From Clostridia bacterium (GTDB lineage: Bacteria; Bacillota; Clostridia; TANB77; CAG-465): a stretch of DNA of 64,000 nucleotides. Location of the stretch: positions 55,542-119,541 of the forward strand of contig JAQSXK010000002.1 of assembly GCA_029256705.1 (NCBI GenBank), given 5' to 3'. This document shows positions 35,096 through 49,949 of the stretch, in pieces (the stretch's first letter is position 1; every line of letters starts with the position of its first letter). Under the pieces are notes generated by a model. That model did not search any database. It worked only from the letters and a program-made list of their open reading frames with translations, and was not told where the DNA came from. Both the position numbers and the translations under genes were made by a program.

Positions 35096-38000
35096 TTATA
35101 AAAATTTTACTTCTTTTAAATATTCTATATATTTTAAAATATAATTTACGTCGATATTTGGCCATTCAAAATTCAATTCTTTCAAGAAATCTTTAGTAAA
35201 TGTTGATAATACTTTAATATTGGTCTTATATTCTAGTTCCTTATTTTTATTGAGATCTGCAATTATTCCAGATATATCTTCAGATGATTCATTAGAGTTT
35301 AAATACTTTTCCATTAATAAAGTCATATCTTGCTTACTTATAATTTTAATGTCTATTCCAATATTTTTTAATGTGTTTATTACATATCTCATCTTTGCAT
35401 GCTTATCATTAAATAGATGGAATACACTATACTCTCTTGATGTCCTAGCTAACTTCATAACAGCATCAGATGCAAAATCTATTGGTGTAAATTCCATATA
35501 AAAATCCAACAAGTTTTCTGGCATCACTTTTAAATTAATTAATGTTTTTATTCTATTTGCAAATGCATTTTCTTCAACATTTGGTTGGAATTTTCCATCT
35601 GTATATCTTCCAGTTAAATTTCCCATTCTCATTATTTTGGCATTTAATCTATTCTCAGATATCTCGTCAAGTATATATTTATCTGCTATATACTTAGTAT
35701 ATACATATACATTATCTAAGTTTTGCTCTATATATAATTTAGTTTCATCGAATTCTTTCTCTATTCCATCATTCTTTTGTTCAACTTGACCACCTTCAAT
35801 TATATTTCCAGATGTACTTAACGTTGAAATCTGAATTAACCTTTTATCGTATTTTTCACAAAAATTTACAATATTTTTAGTACCCTTTACATTTATTTTA
35901 TAGAATAATTCTAAATTTCCATAATGTTTTACATGTGCTGCAGAATTTATTACTGTATCAATATTTTTACTCAACTTAATATTAGCCTCTTCATCTGCAA
36001 TTATATTTTCATTAGTAATATCGCCTTCAACAACATGTATCCTATTATTAAGTTCATTTTCATATTTATCACCAAAGAAGAAACTCAATATTTCTTTTAT
36101 TCTTGATTCTGGATCTTCACCATTTTTACTTCTTATCAAGCAATATATTTTTCCTTTTTCATTTCTCATAAAATTATCTAATATATGTGCACCTAAAAAT
36201 CCTGTAACGCCTGCAAGAAGTACATTACCTACAGATTGTTCAGTTGGTTTATAATTTTCTAATTTATTATTCTCTAAAATTTTATTTATCTTACTATAAT
36301 CATAATCTGCAATTTCTCCGGATATTGACTCTTTTTTATTTATATTATTTAGCATATCTCCAAGTTCTCTAATAGTAGGATATTTAAAGATATCACCATA
36401 AATAATTTTTATATCCTTTGAAAGCAATTTCATAACCAAACTAGTAACTAGTAATGAATCGCCCCCTATTTCAAAAAAGTTATCATTCATGCCAATGTTT
36501 TCGACATTTAATACTTCTTTAAAACTCTCCGCCAACTCAAAATATATACCATCCAATTTTTCTGTATTACTTATAACATTTAATTTGATATCAGGTAACT
36601 TTGACTTATCTACTTTACCATTTATATTAAGTGGTAAAGTTTCTAATCTCATAAAGTAATTTGGTATCATATATAGAGGTAATTTATTTTTCAAAAAGAT
36701 TCTCAACTTTTGTTCATCTATTAAATTATTACTTGTATAATAACAAACAATACTCTTAACGTTATTTATTTCGTTAACTTGCAAATAGCATTCATTTATT
36801 TCTTTATACTTTAAAACACCCAATTGTATCTCTTCTAGTTCAATCCTAAATCCTCTTATCTTTACTTGCATATCTATCCTGCCTAAGAATTCAATATTTT
36901 TAGTATAACTTAAATATACTAAATCACCAGTCTTATATAAAATCTGATTATTCATTTTTATAAACTTTTCATTAGTCAGTTTTTCTTTATTTAAATATCC
37001 ATTAGAAACTCCATCTCCACCCACTAATAATTCGCCCGGAACATTAATTGGAGATAATAAATTACATTTATCATAGATATAGCATGTAGTATTACTTATT
37101 GGTATTCCTATAGGTATTTTGAATTCAAATCTTTTCTCTATTTTATAATAAGTCGAGAAGCTTGTATTTTCAGTTGGACCATATACACTTAATAAATCTA
37201 TATTTTTATTATTATCTAAAACTAAATTTATATGTTTTGTAGATAGAACTTCACCACCAACAAGTAATGTTCTCACATTATCAAAAATATTTTTATCATA
37301 TTCAACTATATTATTAAACAGTGCTGTTGTCAAAAAAATTACTGTTATATTATTATCAATTAGATACTGTTTTAATATCATTGGATTCAATAAATCGTCT
37401 TTTTTAATTAAATATAAAGTTAACCCATTAAGTAATGCACCAAAACACTCAAATGTAGCTGCGTCAAATGACATTGAACCTGTTTGCAATATTCTATCCG
37501 TATTCTTAAAATCTATATAATTAGTATTTTTTACTAATCTTACAACACTCTTATGCCTTACCATTACACCCTTTGGTTCACCAGTTGTTCCAGAAGTATA
37601 CATTATATAAGCTAAATCATCTATACTACTCTTAATATTTAAGTTTTTATTATCATAATTTTTAAATATATCAAATTTTGAGAATGTACTTTTATTTACT
37701 AAAACTTTAATATTAGAGTCTCTAAAAATATATTCTATTCTTTCTTTAGGATAACTCAGATCCATTGGAAGGTATATTGCTCCACATTTTAAAATTCCCA
37801 ATATTGCTATCATCATCTCAATTGATTTATCCAACATTATAGCTACAACATTACCATTTCTAACATGATTTTCAATTAAGTAATGTGCTAATTGGTTTGC
37901 TTTTTCATTTAGATCTATGTAAGTTAAACTATTATTTTCACATACTACCGCTATTTCATTTGGAGTTAAATCAACCTGTTCTTCAAATAACTGAATTATA

Positions 38001-41000
38001 GTTTTATCTTTAGGATAATTAGTATGTGTGTTATTAAAAGAATTTAAAATAAATTCCTTTTCTTCTTCTGATATTATTTCTACATCTCTTATATTAGCCT
38101 CTTTATTTTTAGTAATAAATTCTAATGCATTTAAAACGTGCATAGAAAATCTTTCGATAGTTTCATCCTTATATAGATTTGTATCATATTCTAAATTTAA
38201 ATCTATTTTTTTATCAGTTGGATATACCTCAAATGTTAAATCAAATTTAGAAGTATTAGTTTTTATTTCATCTATCTCTAATTTTGTATTTTCTAGATAT
38301 ATATCAGGTTTACCTGTATTTTGAAAAACATACATAATATTGAAGATTGGATTTCTTGAACTATCTCTCTTGATTTTTAGATTTTTAACCATTTCTTCGT
38401 ATGTATACGAATTATTTTCTAAAGTTTCTAACATTAAATTCTGAGTTTTTTGTAAGTATTCTTTAAATGATTCATTTAAATCTATTTTTACTCTATAAGG
38501 TAAAGATTTAACGAACATTCCTATTGTATTTAATTCTTGTATATGTCTTCTACCAAATGTTGCTATACCTATAATTATATCCTCGCTATAAGTATATTTA
38601 GATAACACAAAATTAAATATTGCTAAGAACACATTATTCAATGTAACATTATTTTCTTTTGCATATTCAACCAATTTTTCTTTTAATTCTGAATTTATTA
38701 TTTTTTTTATTTTTTTCCCTTCAAAAGACTTGTTACTTTTTCTAGGATAATCAGTATTAATTGAAATTACAGGCAATTCATCACTCAATTTATCTAAAAA
38801 ATATTTCTTAGATTTTGTATACTTACTTTTATCATTTTCTATTTGTATACATTGCCCAAATGTTAATATTTCATTTTTTATTTGTTTATCATTATATACA
38901 TCAATTATATCTTCTATAAGTATATTAATCGACTGCCCATCAAATATTATATGATGAAAATCCATTAAAATATTTATTTTGTCCTCTACTAAATAAAATT
39001 CAATTCTAAACAATCTTCCATTAAGTAAGTCAAACGGTTTTACGAAATTATCTTTTACTTTAATATATTCAATATTACTTAATCTAACAGCATTAATTTT
39101 TATTTTCTGTTTATCAATTTTATAATATAATTTATTTTCTTTCATATCTATTTTAGAAAACAATAATGAATGATTTAAAACACTAGTCTCTATACTTTTT
39201 ATTAATTTATCAACATTTATATTATTATTAAGTTTTATTTCTAAAGGTGTATTGTAGATAATACTTTCTGTATTATAAGAATAATTATTGAATATTGATA
39301 TTTGAGCAGGAGTTAGTAAATATTCCTCCTTTTCAGTAGGTACATTAAATATTTCAGTACTCTGTGAATACACACTTTTTTCTCTTATTCTTTTCTCTAA
39401 CATTTCAATGTTTTCACATTCATAAATATCTGTATAGGTAAAATCTATCTTATATTCATCTGATATTTCCATAGACAGTCTTATTGCGCATAAAGAATCA
39501 ATATTTTTTTTATACGAAGAATCATAATAATCAATGTTATATTTGGATAATATTTTAGATAATTTTTTATCTTTAACATTAATTTTATTAGCCTCGGTTT
39601 TATTATCATTATCTTCTTCGTCTACTAGTTCTATTAATTTTTTTCTATCTGCTTTTCCATTCATATTAAAAGGAATTTCCTCTAAAACGAACAACTCACT
39701 TGGCAACATATATTTTGGTAATGATAAACTTAATTTATCTATAATTTCTTTTTTATTATTAAATTTATCATTTATTGTTACATAACATACAATTTTATCA
39801 ATATTATTAATTTTTTTAACAACAACAGCACTTGACGTTATACAATCAATCATATTAATAGCACTTTCAATTTCTTCTATCTCAATACGTAATCCATTAA
39901 TTTTAATTTGATTATCTATTCTTCTACTATACTCTAAATCTCCATCAAAGTTATATAATACTTCATCACCAGTCTTATATACTTTCATACCAAATAATAT
40001 ATCAAATTTACTTGATACTGCATTATCAACATTTATATATCCTAATCCAACTCCAGCACCTGCTATAGCTAATTCTCCATTAACACCCATCGGTAAAATT
40101 CTATTTTTTCTATCTATTATAAATGATTTAGTATTTGGAATTGGCTTTCCAATGTTAACTTCATCATAACTTTTGATTAATTTCATTGACGAGCATACTG
40201 TAGTTTCTGTTGGGCCATAGCCATTAAATATATCTATATTTTTATCTTGCAGAATATTTAATACATTTTTATTGAATACTTCACCTGCTATTGTCAATCT
40301 CTTTATTGAATTTAGCTTCTCAATGTTATCTTCTTTTTGTAGTATTAAATTCAATTTTGTTGGTGTTATAAACATAACTTCTATAGAATACTTTTCTATA
40401 GTATCTACAATTTTATATGGAGAATTTGATTCTTCATCATTTAAAAATACTAATTTAATTCCGAATAGCAAAGGCGTTATAGTTTCTATAACAAACATAT
40501 CAAAAAAGTATTTTGTAATAGATAATGCTACTTTGCAATAATCAAGTTTTTTTACATCATTAGCAGCAAACATTAAATTAATTAAATTGTTATGTGAAAT
40601 CATAACTCCTTTAGGTTTACCTGTTGTTCCAGAAGTATAAATTACATATACTAAATCTTCTCCTTTATTTACTTTTGTAAGATTATTACTTAAATAATTA
40701 GAGTAATTAAAATTATTTATATTTATGGTTTCAACTTTATTATTAATATTATCTATATTTGTAATTATCAACTTTGAACTGCTATTTTCTAAAATATATT
40801 TTATTCTATCGATTGGGAATTCTGGATCTATAGGTAAATATGCAGCACCAGACTTTAAAATCCCCAATATTGAAATAATCATTTCAAATGATCTTTTAAA
40901 TATTAATGATACGATATCCCCAGATTTTACTTTTTTTTCTTCTCTTAAAAAATGTGCGAGACTATTAGATTTTTCATTTAATTCTAGATATGTCATTTGT

Positions 41001-42430
41001 TTATTTTCAAAAATAATTGCTACATCATTTGGATGTTTTTTTACCTGTTGCTCAAATAAATCAATAACAGTCATATTAGTAGGATATTTTGTGTCAGTAT
41101 TATTAAATTCACATAATATTTTATCTTCTTCATCTTCACTCATTACACGAATGTTTTCAACATTAATATCTAAATCTTTAATTGCATTTTTCATAATGGC
41201 AATGAGTCTTGTATTTAAATATTCAATCTCAATTTCATCAAATAGATCTACTAAATAATCATAGTGCAAATTAAAAATACCAGTATTGTCTATATCCATA
41301 ATGTGAATCTCTAAATCATCTTGTATATTACCTGAAAATAACCATTCGGTAGAAAAATCTTCATTATCTAAAATATTTGATCTTGTGTTTTGATAAGATA
41401 ATACAAAATTATATATTTTGCCCTTCACATCTGTTGTGTTATGTATATATTCTAATGTTTTTTCAATTGGATATTTTTGATGTCTAAATAGTGACATAGT
41501 ATCATTACCTAATTGTTTAACTAAATCTATAAATTTTATATTTTCTTCTACTTTTATGCGTGTTGGCATAGTGGAAATAAACATTCCCAGCATCTGTTTT
41601 TCTTTAAAATTTGATCTATTTAACACAGGGGTACCTATTATAAAATCATTTTCATTTTTTATTCTATAAATATATGTGGCAAGCGCACCTAAAAACAACG
41701 TATATGCAGATATTTTATTAACTTTTATATATTCTACTATTTTATCATTAGTTTCTTTATCTAACGTTATAGAATATCTATTAGCTCTTGTATTTAATTT
41801 TTTCTTAGAAGTTTTTAATGAAACAGGTGCTTTTATATCTTTTAAATATTCTCTCCAAAACTGTTCATCTTTCAAATATTTTTCTGAAGAAGTATATTCT
41901 TTTTCTGATTCTATAAAATCTATATACGATGGTTTATTAGCTTCTTCATGTATATTATTTATAGCATTATCATACATTTTTAAGAGTTGATTTGCTACTT
42001 GTCCAAATGTCCATGCATCGGAAATAATATGATGTAACTTAACAAATACACATCCATCATTATTATTATATCTAACTATTTTAATATCATATAATTTATT
42101 ATTTAAAAAATCAAAAGGAGTATTAGAATTTATTTCAAAAAAATTTTCAATATCTTCTTGGCTTTTTTTACTCATGTCAAAATATTCTACATCTTCATAT
42201 ATATAATCTTCAAAAATTTGATACACAGAATTATCCTCTTCAAAAATCTTAATTCTTAGAGCATCATTTAATTCAATAAGTTTATTTACTATTTTATTAC
42301 ATATTTTTTCATCAAATTTAGATTTGATTTGAAGCAATCCAGCTATAGTATTCATAGAAGTATTTTTATTAAATTTCTCTACTAAATATATGTTATTCTC
42401 AGGAAAAGTCAATTCATATCTATTATTCAT
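35096..42430 (-). CDS. bimodular non-ribosomal peptide synthetase with terminal reductase: C-A-T-C-A-T-R
   Basis: C1 HHIISDAWTFG (about 42030); A1 core YTSGTTGKPKG (about 40610), NGYGPTETT, YKTGDEV; T1 NIDSL (about 39500); C2 HHIIFDGQS (about 38950); A2 YTSGTTGEPKGVMV (about 37575), YGPTENT, YKTGDLV; T2 GGDSLLVTSL (about 36455); R domain GxxGxxG VLLAGVTGFLGAHIL (about 36200) and YTKYIADK. Start placed at the second ATG (42430), which has a GAGGGG RBS; the upstream in-frame ATG at 42445 is also possible. Confidence 0.95.
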   Translation of the reverse strand: MNNRYELTFPENNIYLVEKFNKNTSMNTIAGLLQIKSKFDEKICNKIVNKLIELNDALRIKIFEEDNSVYQIFEDYIYEDVEYFDMSKKSQEDIENFFEINSNTPFDFLNNKLYDIKIVRYNNNDGCVFVKLHHIISDAWTFGQVANQLLKMYDNAINNIHEEANKPSYIDFIESEKEYTSSEKYLKDEQFWREYLKDIKAPVSLKTSKKKLNTRANRYSITLDKETNDKIVEYIKVNKISAYTLFLGALATYIYRIKNENDFIIGTPVLNRSNFKEKQMLGMFISTMPTRIKVEENIKFIDLVKQLGNDTMSLFRHQKYPIEKTLEYIHNTTDVKGKIYNFVLSYQNTRSNILDNEDFSTEWLFSGNIQDDLEIHIMDIDNTGIFNLHYDYLVDLFDEIEIEYLNTRLIAIMKNAIKDLDINVENIRVMSEDEEDKILCEFNNTDTKYPTNMTVIDLFEQQVKKHPNDVAIIFENKQMTYLELNEKSNSLAHFLREEKKVKSGDIVSLIFKRSFEMIISILGILKSGAAYLPIDPEFPIDRIKYILENSSSKLIITNIDNINNKVETININNFNYSNYLSNNLTKVNKGEDLVYVIYTSGTTGKPKGVMISHNNLINLMFAANDVKKLDYCKVALSITKYFFDMFVIETITPLLFGIKLVFLNDEESNSPYKIVDTIEKYSIEVMFITPTKLNLILQKEDNIEKLNSIKRLTIAGEVFNKNVLNILQDKNIDIFNGYGPTETTVCSSMKLIKSYDEVNIGKPIPNTKSFIIDRKNRILPMGVNGELAIAGAGVGLGYINVDNAVSSKFDILFGMKVYKTGDEVLYNFDGDLEYSRRIDNQIKINGLRIEIEEIESAINMIDCITSSAVVVKKINNIDKIVCYVTINDKFNNKKEIIDKLSLSLPKYMLPSELFVLEEIPFNMNGKADRKKLIELVDEEDNDNKTEANKINVKDKKLSKILSKYNIDYYDSSYKKNIDSLCAIRLSMEISDEYKIDFTYTDIYECENIEMLEKRIREKSVYSQSTEIFNVPTEKEEYLLTPAQISIFNNYSYNTESIIYNTPLEIKLNNNINVDKLIKSIETSVLNHSLLFSKIDMKENKLYYKIDKQKIKINAVRLSNIEYIKVKDNFVKPFDLLNGRLFRIEFYLVEDKINILMDFHHIIFDGQSINILIEDIIDVYNDKQIKNEILTFGQCIQIENDKSKYTKSKKYFLDKLSDELPVISINTDYPRKSNKSFEGKKIKKIINSELKEKLVEYAKENNVTLNNVFLAIFNFVLSKYTYSEDIIIGIATFGRRHIQELNTIGMFVKSLPYRVKIDLNESFKEYLQKTQNLMLETLENNSYTYEEMVKNLKIKRDSSRNPIFNIMYVFQNTGKPDIYLENTKLEIDEIKTNTSKFDLTFEVYPTDKKIDLNLEYDTNLYKDETIERFSMHVLNALEFITKNKEANIRDVEIISEEEKEFILNSFNNTHTNYPKDKTIIQLFEEQVDLTPNEIAVVCENNSLTYIDLNEKANQLAHYLIENHVRNGNVVAIMLDKSIEMMIAILGILKCGAIYLPMDLSYPKERIEYIFRDSNIKVLVNKSTFSKFDIFKNYDNKNLNIKSSIDDLAYIMYTSGTTGEPKGVMVRHKSVVRLVKNTNYIDFKNTDRILQTGSMSFDAATFECFGALLNGLTLYLIKKDDLLNPMILKQYLIDNNITVIFLTTALFNNIVEYDKNIFDNVRTLLVGGEVLSTKHINLVLDNNKNIDLLSVYGPTENTSFSTYYKIEKRFEFKIPIGIPISNTTCYIYDKCNLLSPINVPGELLVGGDGVSNGYLNKEKLTNEKFIKMNNQILYKTGDLVYLSYTKNIEFLGRIDMQVKIRGFRIELEEIQLGVLKYKEINECYLQVNEINNVKSIVCYYTSNNLIDEQKLRIFLKNKLPLYMIPNYFMRLETLPLNINGKVDKSKLPDIKLNVISNTEKLDGIYFELAESFKEVLNVENIGMNDNFFEIGGDSLLVTSLVMKLLSKDIKIIYGDIFKYPTIRELGDMLNNINKKESISGEIADYDYSKINKILENNKLENYKPTEQSVGNVLLAGVTGFLGAHILDNFMRNEKGKIYCLIRSKNGEDPESRIKEILSFFFGDKYENELNNRIHVVEGDITNENIIADEEANIKLSKNIDTVINSAAHVKHYGNLELFYKINVKGTKNIVNFCEKYDKRLIQISTLSTSGNIIEGGQVEQKNDGIEKEFDETKLYIEQNLDNVYVYTKYIADKYILDEISENRLNAKIMRMGNLTGRYTDGKFQPNVEENAFANRIKTLINLKVMPENLLDFYMEFTPIDFASDAVMKLARTSREYSVFHLFNDKHAKMRYVINTLKNIGIDIKIISKQDMTLLMEKYLNSNESSEDISGIIADLNKNKELEYKTNIKVLSTFTKDFLKELNFEWPNIDVNYILKYIEYLKEVKFL

Positions 42431-42485
42431 TATATTACCCCTCATTTGTATACAATTATAAAATAATTATATATCAAAAAAATAC

Positions 42486-43641: not shown

Positions 43642-43816
43642 AAATATACACCCCTACATTATCTATATATTAGTATATATTCATATAGGTTGTTTTTATT
43701 ACTATTTTATACATGGAAACTAACAATTTAGTATACAAAGTTATATTTAAATAATTCTGTACTAATAAATAAAAAAGAAAAGAGACCAAAGTAATAACTT
43801 TGATCTCCACTTGATA

Positions 43817-44515
43817 CTAATCTATTTTCATAGATTTTGTAATGAATTTTTTGGATTTTCCAGATAGTTCATTAGATATTTGGCCCGTCACATAAGCTGT
43901 AGCACAAGATGTTCCAGAAGCCTTAATAGTACTTCCATCCAGTAATTTTATATCATATTTTTTATCTTTCACTACTATAACCGCTTTACTAGAAGCATTA
44001 TCTGAAACGGAAACTACACCTTTGTAATTTGCAGGATACGAATAACCCTCGTAATTGTTTATACACGAAGCAACAACAATAACCCCATTATCCAGCGCAT
44101 ATTGTACAGCCTCTTTTAATTTAGGCTTATCTTCCTTTGTTCCAAAACTCATGTTAATAATATCAACATCATTTTCAACACACCAATATATAGATTTTGC
44201 TATATTATCTATGCTAGATACTAAGTTGCTATCCAAAGTAGAAACGTAATATATTTCTGCATTGTTTTTTTGCTTAATTATAGATAAGATAGTATTACCA
44301 TGATTTGTAAGCAAAGGATCCTTTACCATTATCTTATTCACTTTTACGTCATATTTGGATATATATTCATCATCCAATAAACTGTCTATAACGCCAATTT
44401 TAACTACTTTACTTGGTCCATTATGAAACGATAAATAAGCAACATATAAAGCAACCGCATAAAGTGAAATTAACAAAATTACCATTACTAAAAATTCTTT
44501 CCGATTTCTTTTCAT
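43817..44515 (-). CDS. minimal membrane-anchored subtilisin-like serine peptidase (S8)
   Basis: N-terminal TM; catalytic Asp (IGVIDSL), His (TNHGNTILS), oxyanion Asn (IINMSFGT) and Ser (SGTSCATAYVTG) in the S8 order within only 232 aa. Confidence 0.75.
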   Translation of the reverse strand: MKRNRKEFLVMVILLISLYAVALYVAYLSFHNGPSKVVKIGVIDSLLDDEYISKYDVKVNKIMVKDPLLTNHGNTILSIIKQKNNAEIYYVSTLDSNLVSSIDNIAKSIYWCVENDVDIINMSFGTKEDKPKLKEAVQYALDNGVIVVASCINNYEGYSYPANYKGVVSVSDNASSKAVIVVKDKKYDIKLLDGSTIKASGTSCATAYVTGQISNELSGKSKKFITKSMKID

Positions 44516-44529
44516 AAAATACCCGCCTT

Positions 44530-44874
44530 CTATAAATTTATTGTAGGTAATGATTTATCCACACTTTCAACTGTAATAGACTTACCTACTACTCTTGCAT
44601 TACATTCAGGATAATTTTCATTTAAAAATCTTAGTACAACAGATATATCTAGAACTTCTACATTCAAACTTTCCCTTATACAAAGGCATCCCTCATCTTC
44701 TGTACTATCTTCATAGAGCCATTCATGAAATTCCTTAGTTAAAACAGAAATTTCCGGCAAATTTGAATTATTACATTCTATTATTTTAGCATAACAATCA
44801 AAAACTATTGTAATAAACATTAAGTATTCCTCCTTTAAAGAAATATAAATTATTGAGTAGCACCAAACCAACAA
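44530..44874 (-). CDS. small acidic Cys-containing protein, hypothetical (candidate immunity/accessory factor)
   Basis: 114 aa, no TM, six Cys including CLC; sits between the His-rich secreted protein gene and the S8 peptidase gene with small gaps and a 25-bp overlap. Confidence 0.35.
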   Translation of the reverse strand: MLVWCYSIIYISLKEEYLMFITIVFDCYAKIIECNNSNLPEISVLTKEFHEWLYEDSTEDEGCLCIRESLNVEVLDISVVLRFLNENYPECNARVVGKSITVESVDKSLPTINL

Positions 44875-45680
44875 TGTGGTTCGTGATTAGGATTTACAAT
44901 CCATTTTCTTCCACCAGGGTGATAATGAGGATAAAAACCCTCGCCAACATCATGAGCTTTATGGTATATATATTTAGTAGTTGGGACTGTTGCTGCTAAA
45001 GCAGCGGCTTTTGCAGCTTCTCTAGTCGTTGCAAAAACATCCATTCCTGCTATTAATCTTGCTACTGCTGCTTCATAAGTTATTTGCTTATTAATAACAA
45101 CAACTCCACCAGCCAAAGCTGCTGAGTAGTATGGTGAGTTTTTTTTTGTATCTTCCTTTTCCTCTACTTTTTCTTGTACCTTAACATTTACTTTGTTTGC
45201 ATCAATCGTTTTTGCAATTGAGTCAACAGAGTACCATACAGTATAAGTTCCTACAACTGCTACTGCTGCAGCAATTGTTATTTGCGCTGCTTCAATAAGA
45301 GCTGGAGTCCATAGAATTAAAGGAATAGCAAAAGCAAACTGTCCAACAACAACTCCATCATAATTTTGTGGGTCCGTTTGTGCTAAATCAATAACTAAGT
45401 TGTCCCCATACTTTTGAGTAGATAAATCATATGCTATTTCATCCCTGTATAAAGTGTACTTATCAACATCCTTAGCATATTTAACCTTCAAGGTTGTATC
45501 ATCTATAGTATTTATAACTTCAATGTTTCCATTAGCTTTTGTAGTTATAACTAAATTTTCATTGTTATTTATCCGTTGGTATTTGTAATAATAATTTTTA
45601 GCTGTAGGTAAAATAGTTAACACTAGAATAATCGTTAGTAATAATACTGTTAACCGGTAAAACCTTTCACTCATTTTCAT
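44850..45680 (-). CDS. secreted/membrane protein with a hydrophobic helical hairpin and a His-rich C-terminus
   Basis: Signal-anchor MKMSERFYRLTVLLLTIILVLTIL; central hydrophobic segment VVVGQFAFAIPLILWTPALIEAAQITIAAAVAVVG; Ala-rich region; C-terminal HKAHDVGEGFYPHYHPGGRKWIVNPNHEPHCWFG. Confidence 0.4.
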   Translation of the reverse strand: MKMSERFYRLTVLLLTIILVLTILPTAKNYYYKYQRINNNENLVITTKANGNIEVINTIDDTTLKVKYAKDVDKYTLYRDEIAYDLSTQKYGDNLVIDLAQTDPQNYDGVVVGQFAFAIPLILWTPALIEAAQITIAAAVAVVGTYTVWYSVDSIAKTIDANKVNVKVQEKVEEKEDTKKNSPYYSAALAGGVVVINKQITYEAAVARLIAGMDVFATTREAAKAAALAATVPTTKYIYHKAHDVGEGFYPHYHPGGRKWIVNPNHEPHCWFGATQ

Positions 45681-45929
45681 AAATTCACCCCTTTAATTTA
45701 GTGTTGGTGATTAGTACTACAAAATTATTAAAAGTAGTACTTAAAATTAATTTACTATTATATTATAACATTTTTTACAATAAAAGTCAATTGAATAAGT
45801 ACCATATGATTAATTTGTTAACATAATTATATATTATTTATTATAAATATTGTAATAAATAAATTGTATGAAAATACAATATAATATACCAAAAGGCTAC
45901 AATATGGTATATTATGGGGTGAAATATAT

Positions 45930-46832: not shown

Positions 46833-47681
46833 TTATTTTTTATACTCAAGAGACAATAAATCATATTGATTATATAATTTGCTATTTAAAGATAGTAATT
46901 CTATCTTATTAACACTATTTAATACTATTGAATAAACTAAAAATTTATCAAACAAAATTAAATCGCCAATATTTTTATCTTTCATTAATGTAAAATGATT
47001 AAGAAACTTTTTAAAATTTTTCCATTCTCTCATATCAGTTATGCCCAAACTAGTTAATTTGAATGAATCTCCAGTTAATGATATAAGACCTAGATTAGAC
47101 GCATCTGACTTTATAAGATCTAGAAAAACCCCTTTATCTATTATTTTATCTGTTAAAATTGCATGATATACAAACTTTTCATGCTCTAGCAAATTGTAAT
47201 CTTCAGATTTTAATTTTGTGTACTCAATTATGCCGTTATTATTTATAATATCAATATAACCTCTTAATTTAAGATTTAATATTACAGCTGGAAAATCTCT
47301 ATATGGTTCAATATTCTTATCACTTAGTAGTGAAACTATTGCTGGAGAATAATCTTTTGGAATATCTCGCAAATAAACTCCATTATTATTTCCAACGCTT
47401 AAATAATAAATATAGTTTCTTATTTTTTCATAAATAAAACCAATTATGTGTATTACAATTACATACAATAAAAACAATGAAATTATTCCTATAGATGCAA
47501 AGAAAAATATTATCATTAATTTTAATAATGAATATATGTCTTCATTAATACTTGAAGAATATGACATCATTAAAATCACGATATTTATAAAGCAAAATCC
47601 TTCTAATAATATTAGCGGAAACTTCAATATTTTAATACAAAAAATACAAGTAATTTTTAGATCTCTTTTAAACTTTAGCAT
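46833..47681 (-). CDS. membrane protein, DUF2207-like
   Basis: Two to three TM helices, then YLRDIPKDYSPAIVSLL... and a C-terminal LFDKFLVYSIVLN motif resembling the DUF2207 C-terminus; paralogous to 53804..54724. Confidence 0.4.
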   Translation of the reverse strand: MLKFKRDLKITCIFCIKILKFPLILLEGFCFINIVILMMSYSSSINEDIYSLLKLMIIFFFASIGIISLFLLYVIVIHIIGFIYEKIRNYIYYLSVGNNNGVYLRDIPKDYSPAIVSLLSDKNIEPYRDFPAVILNLKLRGYIDIINNNGIIEYTKLKSEDYNLLEHEKFVYHAILTDKIIDKGVFLDLIKSDASNLGLISLTGDSFKLTSLGITDMREWKNFKKFLNHFTLMKDKNIGDLILFDKFLVYSIVLNSVNKIELLSLNSKLYNQYDLLSLEYKK

Positions 47682-48224: not shown

Positions 48225-49949
48225 ATGCTTATTTTTATGGGAATCATCGGTGCTATACTTTTTATGTCTATTAACCCATTAAGGTGGAAAAATGATCTTA
48301 CAAAGGAAGAATTATTACCTATAATTCTAGAACAAGCTATACGGTTTATAGTAGGTGGCATTTGGTCATATATAGGTATATACTATGTACTTATTGATGC
48401 GACTTTTTCAGGTTTTGCCATCTGGTGGGCTTTGCCAATATTTATTGCCATTGTCATAGATGGATTTGTTATTAAAAATTCATATGATATTAAAAATTCA
48501 GAAACAATTGGTAAGATATGGCTAGGACTAGGAATATTAGGCTGCGTCATCTACATATTTATGATTACCATATATCCTGCATCAACAATGAAAGAACGTT
48601 ATAAATTTGTAAAAGAATTTGTAACTGTCACTCAAAGTAATATTCCTGATACAGATACAAATAATATAGGCATTGTATCTGAAAAAACTGCTAAACGTAC
48701 AGGTGGTATGTCACTATCCAATTTTGATAACTCATCAATGTACAAAGATGGTACCTATTCAAAACAAATAGTAAATAACGATACAAAATGGGTATCACCA
48801 ATTGAATTTGAAAGTAGTGTCAAGGCGATTGGAAGTGATAAAAAAACACCTGGTTATCTAATAGTTGACTCAAATAATCCAGATGAAAATGCAGTTTCAG
48901 TTAAATCTAATTATACTTATATGTCTTCAGCCGTATTTAGCAGAGACCTCGCTAGACTTGTTCACTTTAAGTATCCAACAAAAATAGTAATTGATTCATG
49001 GTTCGAATTAGATGATAACGGAAAAGGTAACTGTATAGTTGCCCTAGGACAGAAGAAATTTTTTAGATTTTTAAATGTTCAAGATTCCATTGCTATTGTT
49101 AATCCTGATACAGGAGAAATGACCAAATACAATATGGATGAAATTCCTGAGTGGGTAGATATAGCTTTTTCATCAAACCTTGCTGAAAAATATGCTAATA
49201 TCTATGGTGGAAATAGTAAAGGCTTCTGGGCTAGGTATTTTGCAGCATCAGATCAATTTAAACTTACAACATGGACATGGGAAACTGAAAACGGTAACAT
49301 TTCCGGTGATGATGCTTGGAGTATTATAACAGATTCAAACAATAACATGTGGTATACTTCAGACTGTGAAAATCTTAATAGTTCCAATAAAAGTATAGTT
49401 GGATATATTATGATTTCAACAAAAACAGGAAAAATTACTTATTACGATAAGGTAAGAGGAGTAAATGGAAAAGCCTTTGGAGAAAATGCCATTCAATTAT
49501 TTAAAGAAAAAGTTGGCTGGGTACCTGTAGAACCTACCATATACACTATATTTGAACAAATAACCTGGTACTCGACAATCGTTGATGAAAATGGTCAAAT
49601 TCAAAAATATGTATTAGGTAAAGTATCCAACGGAGAAATTGCTTACGGTGATACCTTCAACGGTGCAATTAATGCATATAAAAAACTATTATCTGCAGAT
49701 GGCCTTGTTACAGCACCTTCAGCTTCATCTGAAAGTAAAAAAGTAACTGGATTAGTTGAAAGAATTATTGTAGGAAATCCAACAAAAATCCTCATACAAA
49801 ATAGTGATAAAATTTTCGTTATTGAGAATGAAGTTTCGCCATATGCTCAATTTACAGTGAATGGCGATAATATTGAAATTTCGTATAACGATACAAATAG
49901 TACAGAAGTATATGCATACGAATTCTTCAACAAGTCTCTAAACAAATAA
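48225..49949 (+). CDS. large membrane-anchored protein with extracytoplasmic domain, hypothetical
   Basis: Four N-terminal TM helices followed by a soluble domain of about 450 aa with no recognised motif. Confidence 0.5.
   Translation: MLIFMGIIGAILFMSINPLRWKNDLTKEELLPIILEQAIRFIVGGIWSYIGIYYVLIDATFSGFAIWWALPIFIAIVIDGFVIKNSYDIKNSETIGKIWLGLGILGCVIYIFMITIYPASTMKERYKFVKEFVTVTQSNIPDTDTNNIGIVSEKTAKRTGGMSLSNFDNSSMYKDGTYSKQIVNNDTKWVSPIEFESSVKAIGSDKKTPGYLIVDSNNPDENAVSVKSNYTYMSSAVFSRDLARLVHFKYPTKIVIDSWFELDDNGKGNCIVALGQKKFFRFLNVQDSIAIVNPDTGEMTKYNMDEIPEWVDIAFSSNLAEKYANIYGGNSKGFWARYFAASDQFKLTTWTWETENGNISGDDAWSIITDSNNNMWYTSDCENLNSSNKSIVGYIMISTKTGKITYYDKVRGVNGKAFGENAIQLFKEKVGWVPVEPTIYTIFEQITWYSTIVDENGQIQKYVLGKVSNGEIAYGDTFNGAINAYKKLLSADGLVTAPSASSESKKVTGLVERIIVGNPTKILIQNSDKIFVIENEVSPYAQFTVNGDNIEISYNDTNSTEVYAYEFFNKSLNK

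Follow-up and report, generated by a model that had tools for sequence, protein, structure and literature searches.

What do three small genes do that stand directly upstream of the sporulation genes yabP, yabQ and divIC in an uncultured member of the Clostridia? The genes lie on the minus strand of a 64,000-nucleotide (nt) stretch of contig JAQSXK010000002.1 (Clostridia bacterium, assembly GCA_029256705.1), referred to here as the window, whose DNA is low in GC (about 25% G+C). The initial annotation, made from the letters alone, had proposed that they encode a novel protease-matured antimicrobial or a sporulation factor. We found the three open reading frames where it had placed them, tightly spaced and co-directional in the order toxin, small acidic protein and S8 peptidase, with ribosome-binding sites ahead of all three genes:

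44850..45680, minus strand: putative toxin precursor (AbpT-like), 276 amino acids (aa), ribosome-binding site AAAGGGGTG, identified from family alignments
44530..44820, minus strand: candidate immunity protein (AbpI-like), 96 aa, isoelectric point (pI) 4.3, no signal peptide, Shine-Dalgarno (SD) sequence AAAGGAGG
43817..44515, minus strand: minimal S8 peptidase (AbpP-like), 232 aa, identified from Pfam, NCBIfam, tblastn and alignment

Our analysis points to an operon of the S8-PTS or ABP type (abpT-abpI-abpP) that encodes toxin, immunity protein and protease, a reading to which we assign a probability of about 0.8. The guess that these genes encode a protease-matured toxin with its immunity protein is thus favored, by analogy, by the match to S8-PTS/ABP and by conserved linkage. 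Its novelty did not hold up: the three-component architecture has already been published, and the cassette is not a new kind of system.

S8-PTS systems, which include an operonically linked exported S8 peptidase and immunity protein, were predicted in 2022 by Li, Tan & Zhang (PMC9424270). They were later studied experimentally as ABP (abpP, abpT, abpI) by Colautti, Garrett & Whitney in 2025 (PMC12582261) and by Mwangi et al. in 2026 (PMC13556192). The BetaH domain of the toxins is published as a curved seven-stranded sheet around a central helix, about 120 aa in length. The AbpP cut falls between sheet and central helix of the secreted toxin's BetaH domain, at Gln159|Ala160 in the Corynebacterium casei toxin, and increases activity about 20-fold (PMC12582261). 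The helix-plus-toxin fragment then enters target cells in a manner that depends on the proton motive force, and the mean pI values published for the N and C fragments are 4.1 and 10.7, respectively (PMC12582261). The S8-Ntox35 locus of Staphylococcus aureus shows the same behavior (PMC13556192), and a 2026 review still lists the activity of S8-VOC1 as unknown (PMC13460014).

The peptidase matched Pfam Peptidase_S8 at 5.4e-13. Asp44 (IGVIDS), His72 (TNHGNT) and Ser203 (GTSCATAY) were invariant in an alignment of family members with reference AbpP peptidases, in agreement with the catalytic elements first proposed. The spacing from Asp to His is 28 residues, compared with 29 in S. aureus AbpP, the catalytic residues of which are D33, H62 and S205 (PMC13556192). 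The fourth element had been taken to be the Asn of INMSFG, but this residue corresponds to the substrate-binding strand of subtilisin. A better candidate for the oxyanion hole, and most likely the right one, is Asn153 (VASCINNY), which aligns with the GN motif of the subtilisins Savinase and BPN' and is nearly invariant in the family alignment. The enzyme had also been called unusually small for a subtilase. It is small, at 232 aa compared with 262-325 aa in the reference AbpP peptidases, relative to which it is missing two internal loops and the C-terminal ~25-50 aa. However, it is not uniquely so, as the QhpE model has 219 positions and S8-PTS peptidases likewise have no prodomain. The window peptidase is itself prodomain-less, with no I9 domain. 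Its N-terminal hydrophobic segment (aa 8-28, 21 residues) contains no AxA-type site and is probably a membrane anchor rather than a cleavable signal.

When the window peptidase was compared by tblastn with 72,556 plasmids, the top matches were S8 peptidases of Bacillus and Priestia. In six of the eight loci inspected, the S8 peptidase gene was followed by a gene for a 'SAR2788 family putative toxin' and one for a small hypothetical protein; SAR2788 is the NCBI name for BetaH toxins. The plasmid peptidases beside these toxins are also prodomain-less. The best NCBIfam match of the window peptidase was QhpE (NF049966; 109.2 bits, 1.8e-31), below the cutoff of 165, and the PatA/PatG models matched as well. 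Reference S8-PTS peptidases gave the same sub-threshold spectrum, with QhpE at about 100-119 bits and then mycosin, PatA and PrtP. Membership in QhpE is contradicted by the score and by the neighborhood, since no qhp-type genes (qhpC, qhpD or qhpG) were found at the window locus or in the two relatives on long contigs (L001 and L002). By tblastn, NCBIfam spectrum and alignment, the window peptidase belongs with the prodomain-less exported S8 clade linked to BetaH toxins. Plasmids of Peribacillus and Bacillus altitudinis (L027:2501-3885 and L028:2399-3843) carry an AbpP-like S8 gene followed, in place of a SAR2788 toxin gene, by a gene for a secreted protein of 184-187 aa. That protein is helical in its N-terminal part, contains a single hydrophobic segment and ends in a short basic tail with Cys, and it may be another type of cargo for the AbpP-like clade.

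The toxin precursor consists of a signal or anchor, an acidic beta-rich region, hydrophobic helices, a Lys/Glu linker and a domain with four conserved His residues. The signal anchor, hydrophobic stretch, Ala-rich region and His-rich C terminus that the initial annotation had pointed out are all present, and all are conserved in family alignments. The parts are as follows:

45600..45680, minus strand: export signal or signal-anchor at the N terminus (aa 1-27), MKMSERFYR followed by LTVLLLTIILVLTIL and PTA, read from the sequence
45339..45599, minus strand: acidic beta-rich region, aa 28-114, pI 4.7, candidate for a divergent, shortened BetaH sheet
45201..45338, minus strand: hydrophobic helices, aa 115-160 (~46 residues), FAFAIPLILWTPALIEAAQITIAAAVAVVGTYTVWYSVDSIAKTI, aligning with ASVAFLLPIAGV...IAGATYTAVGKVA of the Bacillus cereus SAR2788 toxin
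44853..45140, minus strand: C-terminal toxin domain, aa 181-276 (96 residues), with His243, His252, His254 and His269 conserved

Scans with Pfam, NCBIfam, PADLOC and PHROGs gave nothing useful for the toxin or the small protein, and weak library matches to DUF6056, terminase and Rz-like spanin were dismissed as chance. Tblastn of the toxin against the plasmids also returned nothing; the known loci were reached solely through tblastn of the peptidase and then the B. cereus toxin. A profile of 54 C-terminal domains, built with the reference excluded, scored 63.9 bits on the C terminus of the plasmid-borne B. cereus SAR2788 toxin (L029). The alignment of the two toxins is collinear from the signal peptide through the C terminus, with ARAS|VAFLLPIAG…IAGATYTAVGKVA of the B. 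cereus protein opposite VVGQ|FAFAIPLIL…VVGTYTVWYSVDS of the window toxin. Moreover, the family profile matched S8-PTS-type toxins of B. cereus, Exiguobacterium and Paraclostridium from end to end.

Within the C-terminal domain His243 is nearly invariant, and His252-x-His254 and His269 complete the conserved set. The HxH part of the motif proposed for this region was borne out, but the HxxxD part was not: several close homologues have Gly in place of Asp244, and distant ones no longer have His240. We rejected two other assignments of the His-rich tail. A His-Me (HNH) nuclease does not fit because the last His is followed by the end of the protein and not by a helix, and HNH models gave no match. 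An M23/LAS metallopeptidase does not fit because Asp244 and His240 are not conserved, and neither a Pfam M23 match nor such a fold match was obtained. Pfam contains no model for the domain. AlphaFold2 with a 37-sequence alignment gave a confident model (predicted local distance difference test score (pLDDT) of 86.9, predicted template modeling score of 0.82) with the order ββαβαβββ, and fold matches of VOC-like type were weak. The domain is most probably the published 'S8-VOC1' domain, as judged from the description of that domain in words.

A profile search of 1.84 billion representatives returned 133 clusters. About 20 of these have the full-length architecture and the rest match in the last ~100 residues; the domain lies 0-7 residues from the C terminus in nearly all matches. 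RHS-repeat proteins of up to 2059 aa end in the same domain, and orphan RHS-tip cassettes carry it followed by signal-less candidate immunity genes. By this distribution the C-terminal domain is a polymorphic-toxin domain. The initial annotation had read the hydrophobic stretch as a helical hairpin. We found that 67 of 90 unrelated carriers have a segment of transmembrane (TM) grade in the 80 residues ahead of the domain, compared with 0 of 35 control windows taken from RHS bodies. Because such a segment precedes the domain so often, aa 115-160 are best read as a BetaH-like central helix that the protease would expose, joined to the toxin module's own hydrophobic helix, rather than as the hairpin of a protein that resides in the membrane. 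The toxin module is common to the window toxin, the RHS tips and stand-alone acidobacterial proteins.

Other carriers of the domain were recorded along the way. In two RHS-tip loci (L020:3538-4164/4188-4700 and L021:6001-6588/6578-7165) the 4-His domain is followed by a protein of 170-195 aa that is a candidate for immunity; these two are homologous to each other and differ from the 96-aa family of the window. Further proteins listed with the domain on RHS are P0141, P0125, P0145, P0077, P0109 and P0058. Acidobacteriota (Terriglobia and Thermoanaerobaculia) encode stand-alone domain proteins of ~125-205 aa with neither signal peptide nor hydrophobic helix (L005:2337-2720, L006:7803-8264, L016-L019 and L022:5001-5618), and a 107-aa gene directly follows the domain gene in L022/L023. 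These proteins may be toxin-antitoxin-like or orphan modules. Paraclostridium sordellii pCS1-6, one of the pCS1-type plasmids, carries a 259-aa toxin of the same type as that of the window (L032:3004-3783), with signal, beta-region, hydrophobic helices and 4-His domain; the 3 kb on either side yielded no S8 gene.

At the other end of the hydrophobic stretch, Gln114 is the sole invariant residue in the first 180 aa among homologues of 27-100% identity. It occurs in the context Gly/Ala-Gln114, exactly where the beta-rich region meets the hydrophobic helix, and it precedes the pattern xxxxxP(L/I), which is also present in the reference B. cereus toxin (ARAS|VAFLLPIA). Several intermediate toxins have Gln at the junction position as well. 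Because Gln114 is invariant, and because the site mapped in the C. casei toxin is Gln159|Ala160, we predict that the protease would cleave between Gln114 and Phe115. The junction also divides the charge of the precursor: in most family members the N fragment has a pI of 4.1-4.7, and the C fragment has a pI of 8-10.

Is the beta-rich region a BetaH domain? The NCBIfam model for BetaH (NF038340, SAR2788_fam) fades across VOC1-type toxins, from 108 bits in B. cereus to 41, 36, 18 and 14 bits, and gave no match to the P. sordellii toxin. With hhalign, the whole N-terminal part of the family aligned with the VOC1-type toxins, some of which NF038340 recognizes, at 98.6% probability. These intermediates in turn aligned with canonical BetaH toxins at 98.6%. 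Much of the link from family to intermediates stems from the signal peptide and the hydrophobic helices. The beta-region measures ~88 aa in the window toxin and 98-132 aa in the reference toxins measured. From these comparisons, the window toxin probably contains a divergent, shortened N-terminal BetaH domain.

The small protein was reported initially as a 114-aa acidic Cys-containing product. It is acidic, but it is almost certainly 96 aa long, starting at the ATG at 44820 rather than at the TTG at 44874, because the strong SD sequence AAAGGAGG lies 8 nt ahead of this ATG and homologues are 93-98 aa in length. Conservation does not extend to the cysteines; Phe7, Trp34, Tyr36, Pro71 and Pro92 are the invariant positions. 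A word-indexed protein search with the small protein found only three relatives, and further members of the family were drawn from fetched loci. In all loci that carry the small gene (12 of 12) it lies directly downstream of the toxin gene. This position, the absence of a signal peptide, the acidity and the strict co-occurrence all fit the predicted role in immunity; the candidate immunity protein belongs to a new family. It has no match in Pfam, NCBIfam or PADLOC. We looked for an immunity family shared with the RHS-tip, B. cereus and Exiguobacterium loci and found none; the sole similarity, of 6.7 bits, was to a plasmid protein of P. sordellii. The protein with that weak similarity has 95 aa and is divergently transcribed (L032:2595-2882). 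In one distant locus two copies of the small gene flank the toxin gene, upstream and downstream (L012:2114-2377 and L012:3480-3761).

A word-indexed search identified 18 close relatives of the toxin, all unannotated, and a locus identical at the 99% level is present in a GTDB genome. In L001 and L002 the order toxin, 93-aa protein, S8, yabP, yabQ, divIC and nonribosomal peptide synthetase (NRPS) is kept and the upstream gene differs; the position directly upstream of yabP is retained in relatives with 60-70% toxin identity. A metagenome scan added distant full-length toxin relatives with 27-35% identity. Two of these loci (L012 and L013) have homologues of the small-protein gene and then of the S8 gene behind the toxin gene, and in a third (L015) the contig ends past the small gene. 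Their neighbors are unrelated (an LCP protein, PhoH, an aldolase and a radical-SAM-like protein), and yabP is not nearby. Because linkage is kept in unrelated neighborhoods at 27-35% toxin identity, the trio is a module, and its placement beside sporulation genes is particular to one clade. The co-occurrence across genomes on which the initial annotation had staked its proposal therefore holds over 27-70% toxin identity. No second copy of any cassette gene was found within the window.

Signals for transcription flank the cassette, and a sporulation gene lies beyond them:

45762..45790, minus strand: sigma-70-type promoter-like site, TTGACT-17-TATAAT with an extended -10 TG, 11/12 consensus matches, the best in the scanned region
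43781..43808, minus strand: intrinsic-terminator-like hairpin with a 12-bp stem, 4-nt loop and T-run, 9 nt past the peptidase stop codon
43354-43641: yabP, downstream of the cassette, followed by yabQ, divIC and a gene for a 2449-aa NRPS

The promoter-like site, a consensus match, is ~80 nt 5' of the toxin start codon, and the terminator-like hairpin stands between the cassette and yabP (two terminator-like sites were observed, compared with 0.6 expected). Because the three genes have their own promoter-like site and terminator-like hairpin, the cassette is, to judge from these signals, a self-contained transcription unit, apart from yabP, yabQ, divIC and the NRPS gene. The adjacency to yabP, yabQ and divIC appears to be incidental.

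By analogy with the systems studied experimentally in S. aureus, C. casei and P. megaterium, we infer the steps of export, cleavage, activation, target-cell entry, immunity and antibacterial activity as follows. The 276-aa precursor would be exported by Sec. The catalytic domain of the S8 peptidase would lie outside the membrane, tethered by its N-terminal hydrophobic anchor, and would cut the precursor at Gly/Ala-Gln114|Phe115, where the acidic beta-rich part gives way to the hydrophobic helix. The freed fragment, made up of the hydrophobic helices, the Lys-rich linker and the basic 4-His domain, would enter the membrane of a competitor and reach its cytoplasm. There the metal-binding, VOC-like 4-His domain would damage the competitor by a metal-dependent reaction of unknown kind. 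In the producer, the 96-aa acidic cytoplasmic protein would bind and neutralize the toxin.

The cassette resembles S8-PTS/ABP loci in its three-component operon. The S8 peptidase has no prodomain and is exported, as is the toxin of ~260-290 aa, whose toxin domain takes up the final ~95 residues; the immunity gene, which encodes no signal, comes directly behind the toxin gene. Its closest peptidases come from such loci, and its toxin domain is homologous to that of the SAR2788-family toxin of B. cereus. The Gln at the junction of beta-region and helix and the division into an acidic N and a basic C fragment are further likenesses. It differs in that the N-terminal domain, ~88 aa in length, is missed by the SAR2788/BetaH model, in that the peptidase is shorter and appears to be signal-anchored, and in that the immunity protein falls outside all libraries searched. 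The hosts differ too, being uncultured low-GC Clostridia rather than the mainly Bacillales and Actinobacteria of the published systems.

Several observations weigh against assigning the cassette to S8-PTS/ABP. Even with E <= 10 allowed, NF038340 matched neither the window toxin nor its distant relatives. When the beta-region was compared alone, with the signal and helices removed, hhalign against BetaH references gave only a weak alignment (50% probability, E of 1.7e-4, 51 columns), with no direct match to canonical BetaH. AlphaFold2 produced five strands followed by helices for the N-terminal half at a pLDDT below 50, which does not confirm the BetaH fold; the model of the full 276-aa protein (pLDDT of 49) was too poor for use. 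The helix after the predicted cleavage site is strongly hydrophobic and about double the length of its published counterparts, which are cationic-amphipathic, and the C fragment of the window toxin, with a pI of 8.0, is no more than mildly basic. Of the gene orders, toxin-immunity-protease is the less common. Among the clostridial clade sampled we saw no alternative toxin domains on the N-terminal scaffold, and the 'S8-VOC1' label was given by comparison with a published description in words.

In a variant of the same system, the toxin would act while attached to the surface. Both proteins would then be membrane-anchored, and killing would be by contact or directed at siblings, as in cannibalism, rather than by a diffusible product. 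The 21-residue segment of the peptidase without an AxA-type site, the PTA at the end of the toxin signal with Pro at -3, the TM-grade hydrophobicity of the helices after the junction and the vertical conservation of the cassette at one locus in its clade with a single toxin type are all consistent with this model. However, several distant family members have ordinary cleavable signals of AxA type or lipoboxes, a cut at Gln114 would in any case separate the toxin fragment from the N-terminal anchor, and the homologous systems that have been studied are diffusible (PMC12582261, PMC13556192). We consider a tethered system improbable, although it deserves some weight. There is also a broader proposal: the toxin module, a TM-grade helix with a 4-His single-unit VOC-like domain, would be a membrane-associated metalloenzyme with a chemistry new to antibacterial toxins, in a clostridial cassette that is perhaps vertically inherited, non-polymorphic, surface-tethered and possibly anti-sibling. 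We hold this proposal to be doubtful, with a modest chance of being correct.

The remaining alternatives take their cue from the neighboring genes and from the curated peptidase models. QhpE is a small subtilisin-like protease that serves the maturation of quinohemoprotein amine dehydrogenase; like the window enzyme it is an S8 core of roughly 220 residues without a prodomain, and it acts in the cytoplasm, in the Qhp pathway. A maturation protease of the QhpE, PatA or lanthipeptide-leader type would process a small modified peptide, that is, a ribosomally synthesized and post-translationally modified peptide or bacteriocin, and the 276-aa protein would be an accessory membrane protein. The rank of QhpE as best NCBIfam model, the PatA/PatG matches and the NRPS gene 1.4 kb downstream all lend themselves to this reading. 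Yet the QhpE score is well under its cutoff and bona fide S8-PTS peptidases give the same matches, neither a precursor peptide nor an ABC exporter, cyclase or radical-SAM enzyme is encoded in the conserved block, and distant cassettes have no adjacent NRPS. Unlike cytoplasmic QhpE, the window peptidase has an N-terminal anchor and a catalytic domain predicted to be extracytoplasmic. We regard such a maturation role as scarcely credible. Only slightly better placed, and still very unlikely, is a sporulation factor, in which a membrane-anchored protease and its substrate would act in engulfment or cortex formation under co-regulation with yabP-yabQ-divIC. The retained position directly upstream of these genes speaks for it, but a terminator-like hairpin precedes yabP, the promoter-like site, with its extended -10, matches the vegetative sigma-70 type, and the distant cassettes (L012, L013 and L015) have unrelated neighbors and no yabP. 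In addition, relatives of the peptidase and of the toxin domain occur in plasmid-borne toxin loci and in RHS toxins. The sporulation role offered in the initial annotation is therefore disfavored, and a toxin-immunity-protease operon of the S8-PTS/ABP type is the reading that we retain.

Two further classes of toxin invite comparison with this operon. RHS/YD-repeat toxins carry the same 4-His domain at the extreme C terminus, usually after a hydrophobic helix, and a signal-less candidate immunity gene follows. In contrast, the window toxin has neither RHS repeats nor a DPxG autoproteolytic core, its release would fall to the separate S8 peptidase, and the immunity genes of RHS tips (170-195 aa) are unrelated to the 96-aa protein. 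Colicins and soluble pyocins are likewise secreted modular toxins that kill through their C-terminal domain, and the gene directly downstream encodes a small acidic immunity protein. The window system differs from these in having no colicin-type receptor-binding or translocation domain and no lysis gene, in its predicted activation by a co-encoded protease and in its Gram-positive producer.

Assignment of the cassette to S8-PTS/ABP would extend these protease-activated antibacterial systems to uncultured low-GC Clostridia; members this divergent escape the present family model for BetaH (SAR2788). The cassette would provide a stripped-down version for mechanistic work, its peptidase having 232 aa, its beta-region ~88 aa and its candidate immunity protein 96 aa, and the conserved P1 Gln is a likely cleavage determinant. 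Whether on RHS proteins or in S8-PTS loci, the toxin domain regularly comes with a hydrophobic helix ahead of it, and this pairing is a lead on cell entry and target.

The surroundings of the cassette contain other genes. Upstream of it, past dapF, the window encodes a 282-aa membrane protein with a C-terminal DUF2207 domain (46833-47681, minus strand) and a 574-aa membrane protein without a family match (48225-49949, plus strand); nothing ties either to the cassette. On the other side, after yabP-yabQ-divIC, the 2449-aa NRPS (35096-42445, minus strand) has two modules and a terminal reductase domain. The NRPS position in L001 and L002 (L001:11331-15590 and L002:11236-15537) is occupied by a gene for a one-module C-A-T-R enzyme of 1419-1433 aa, which is followed by a histidine kinase gene.

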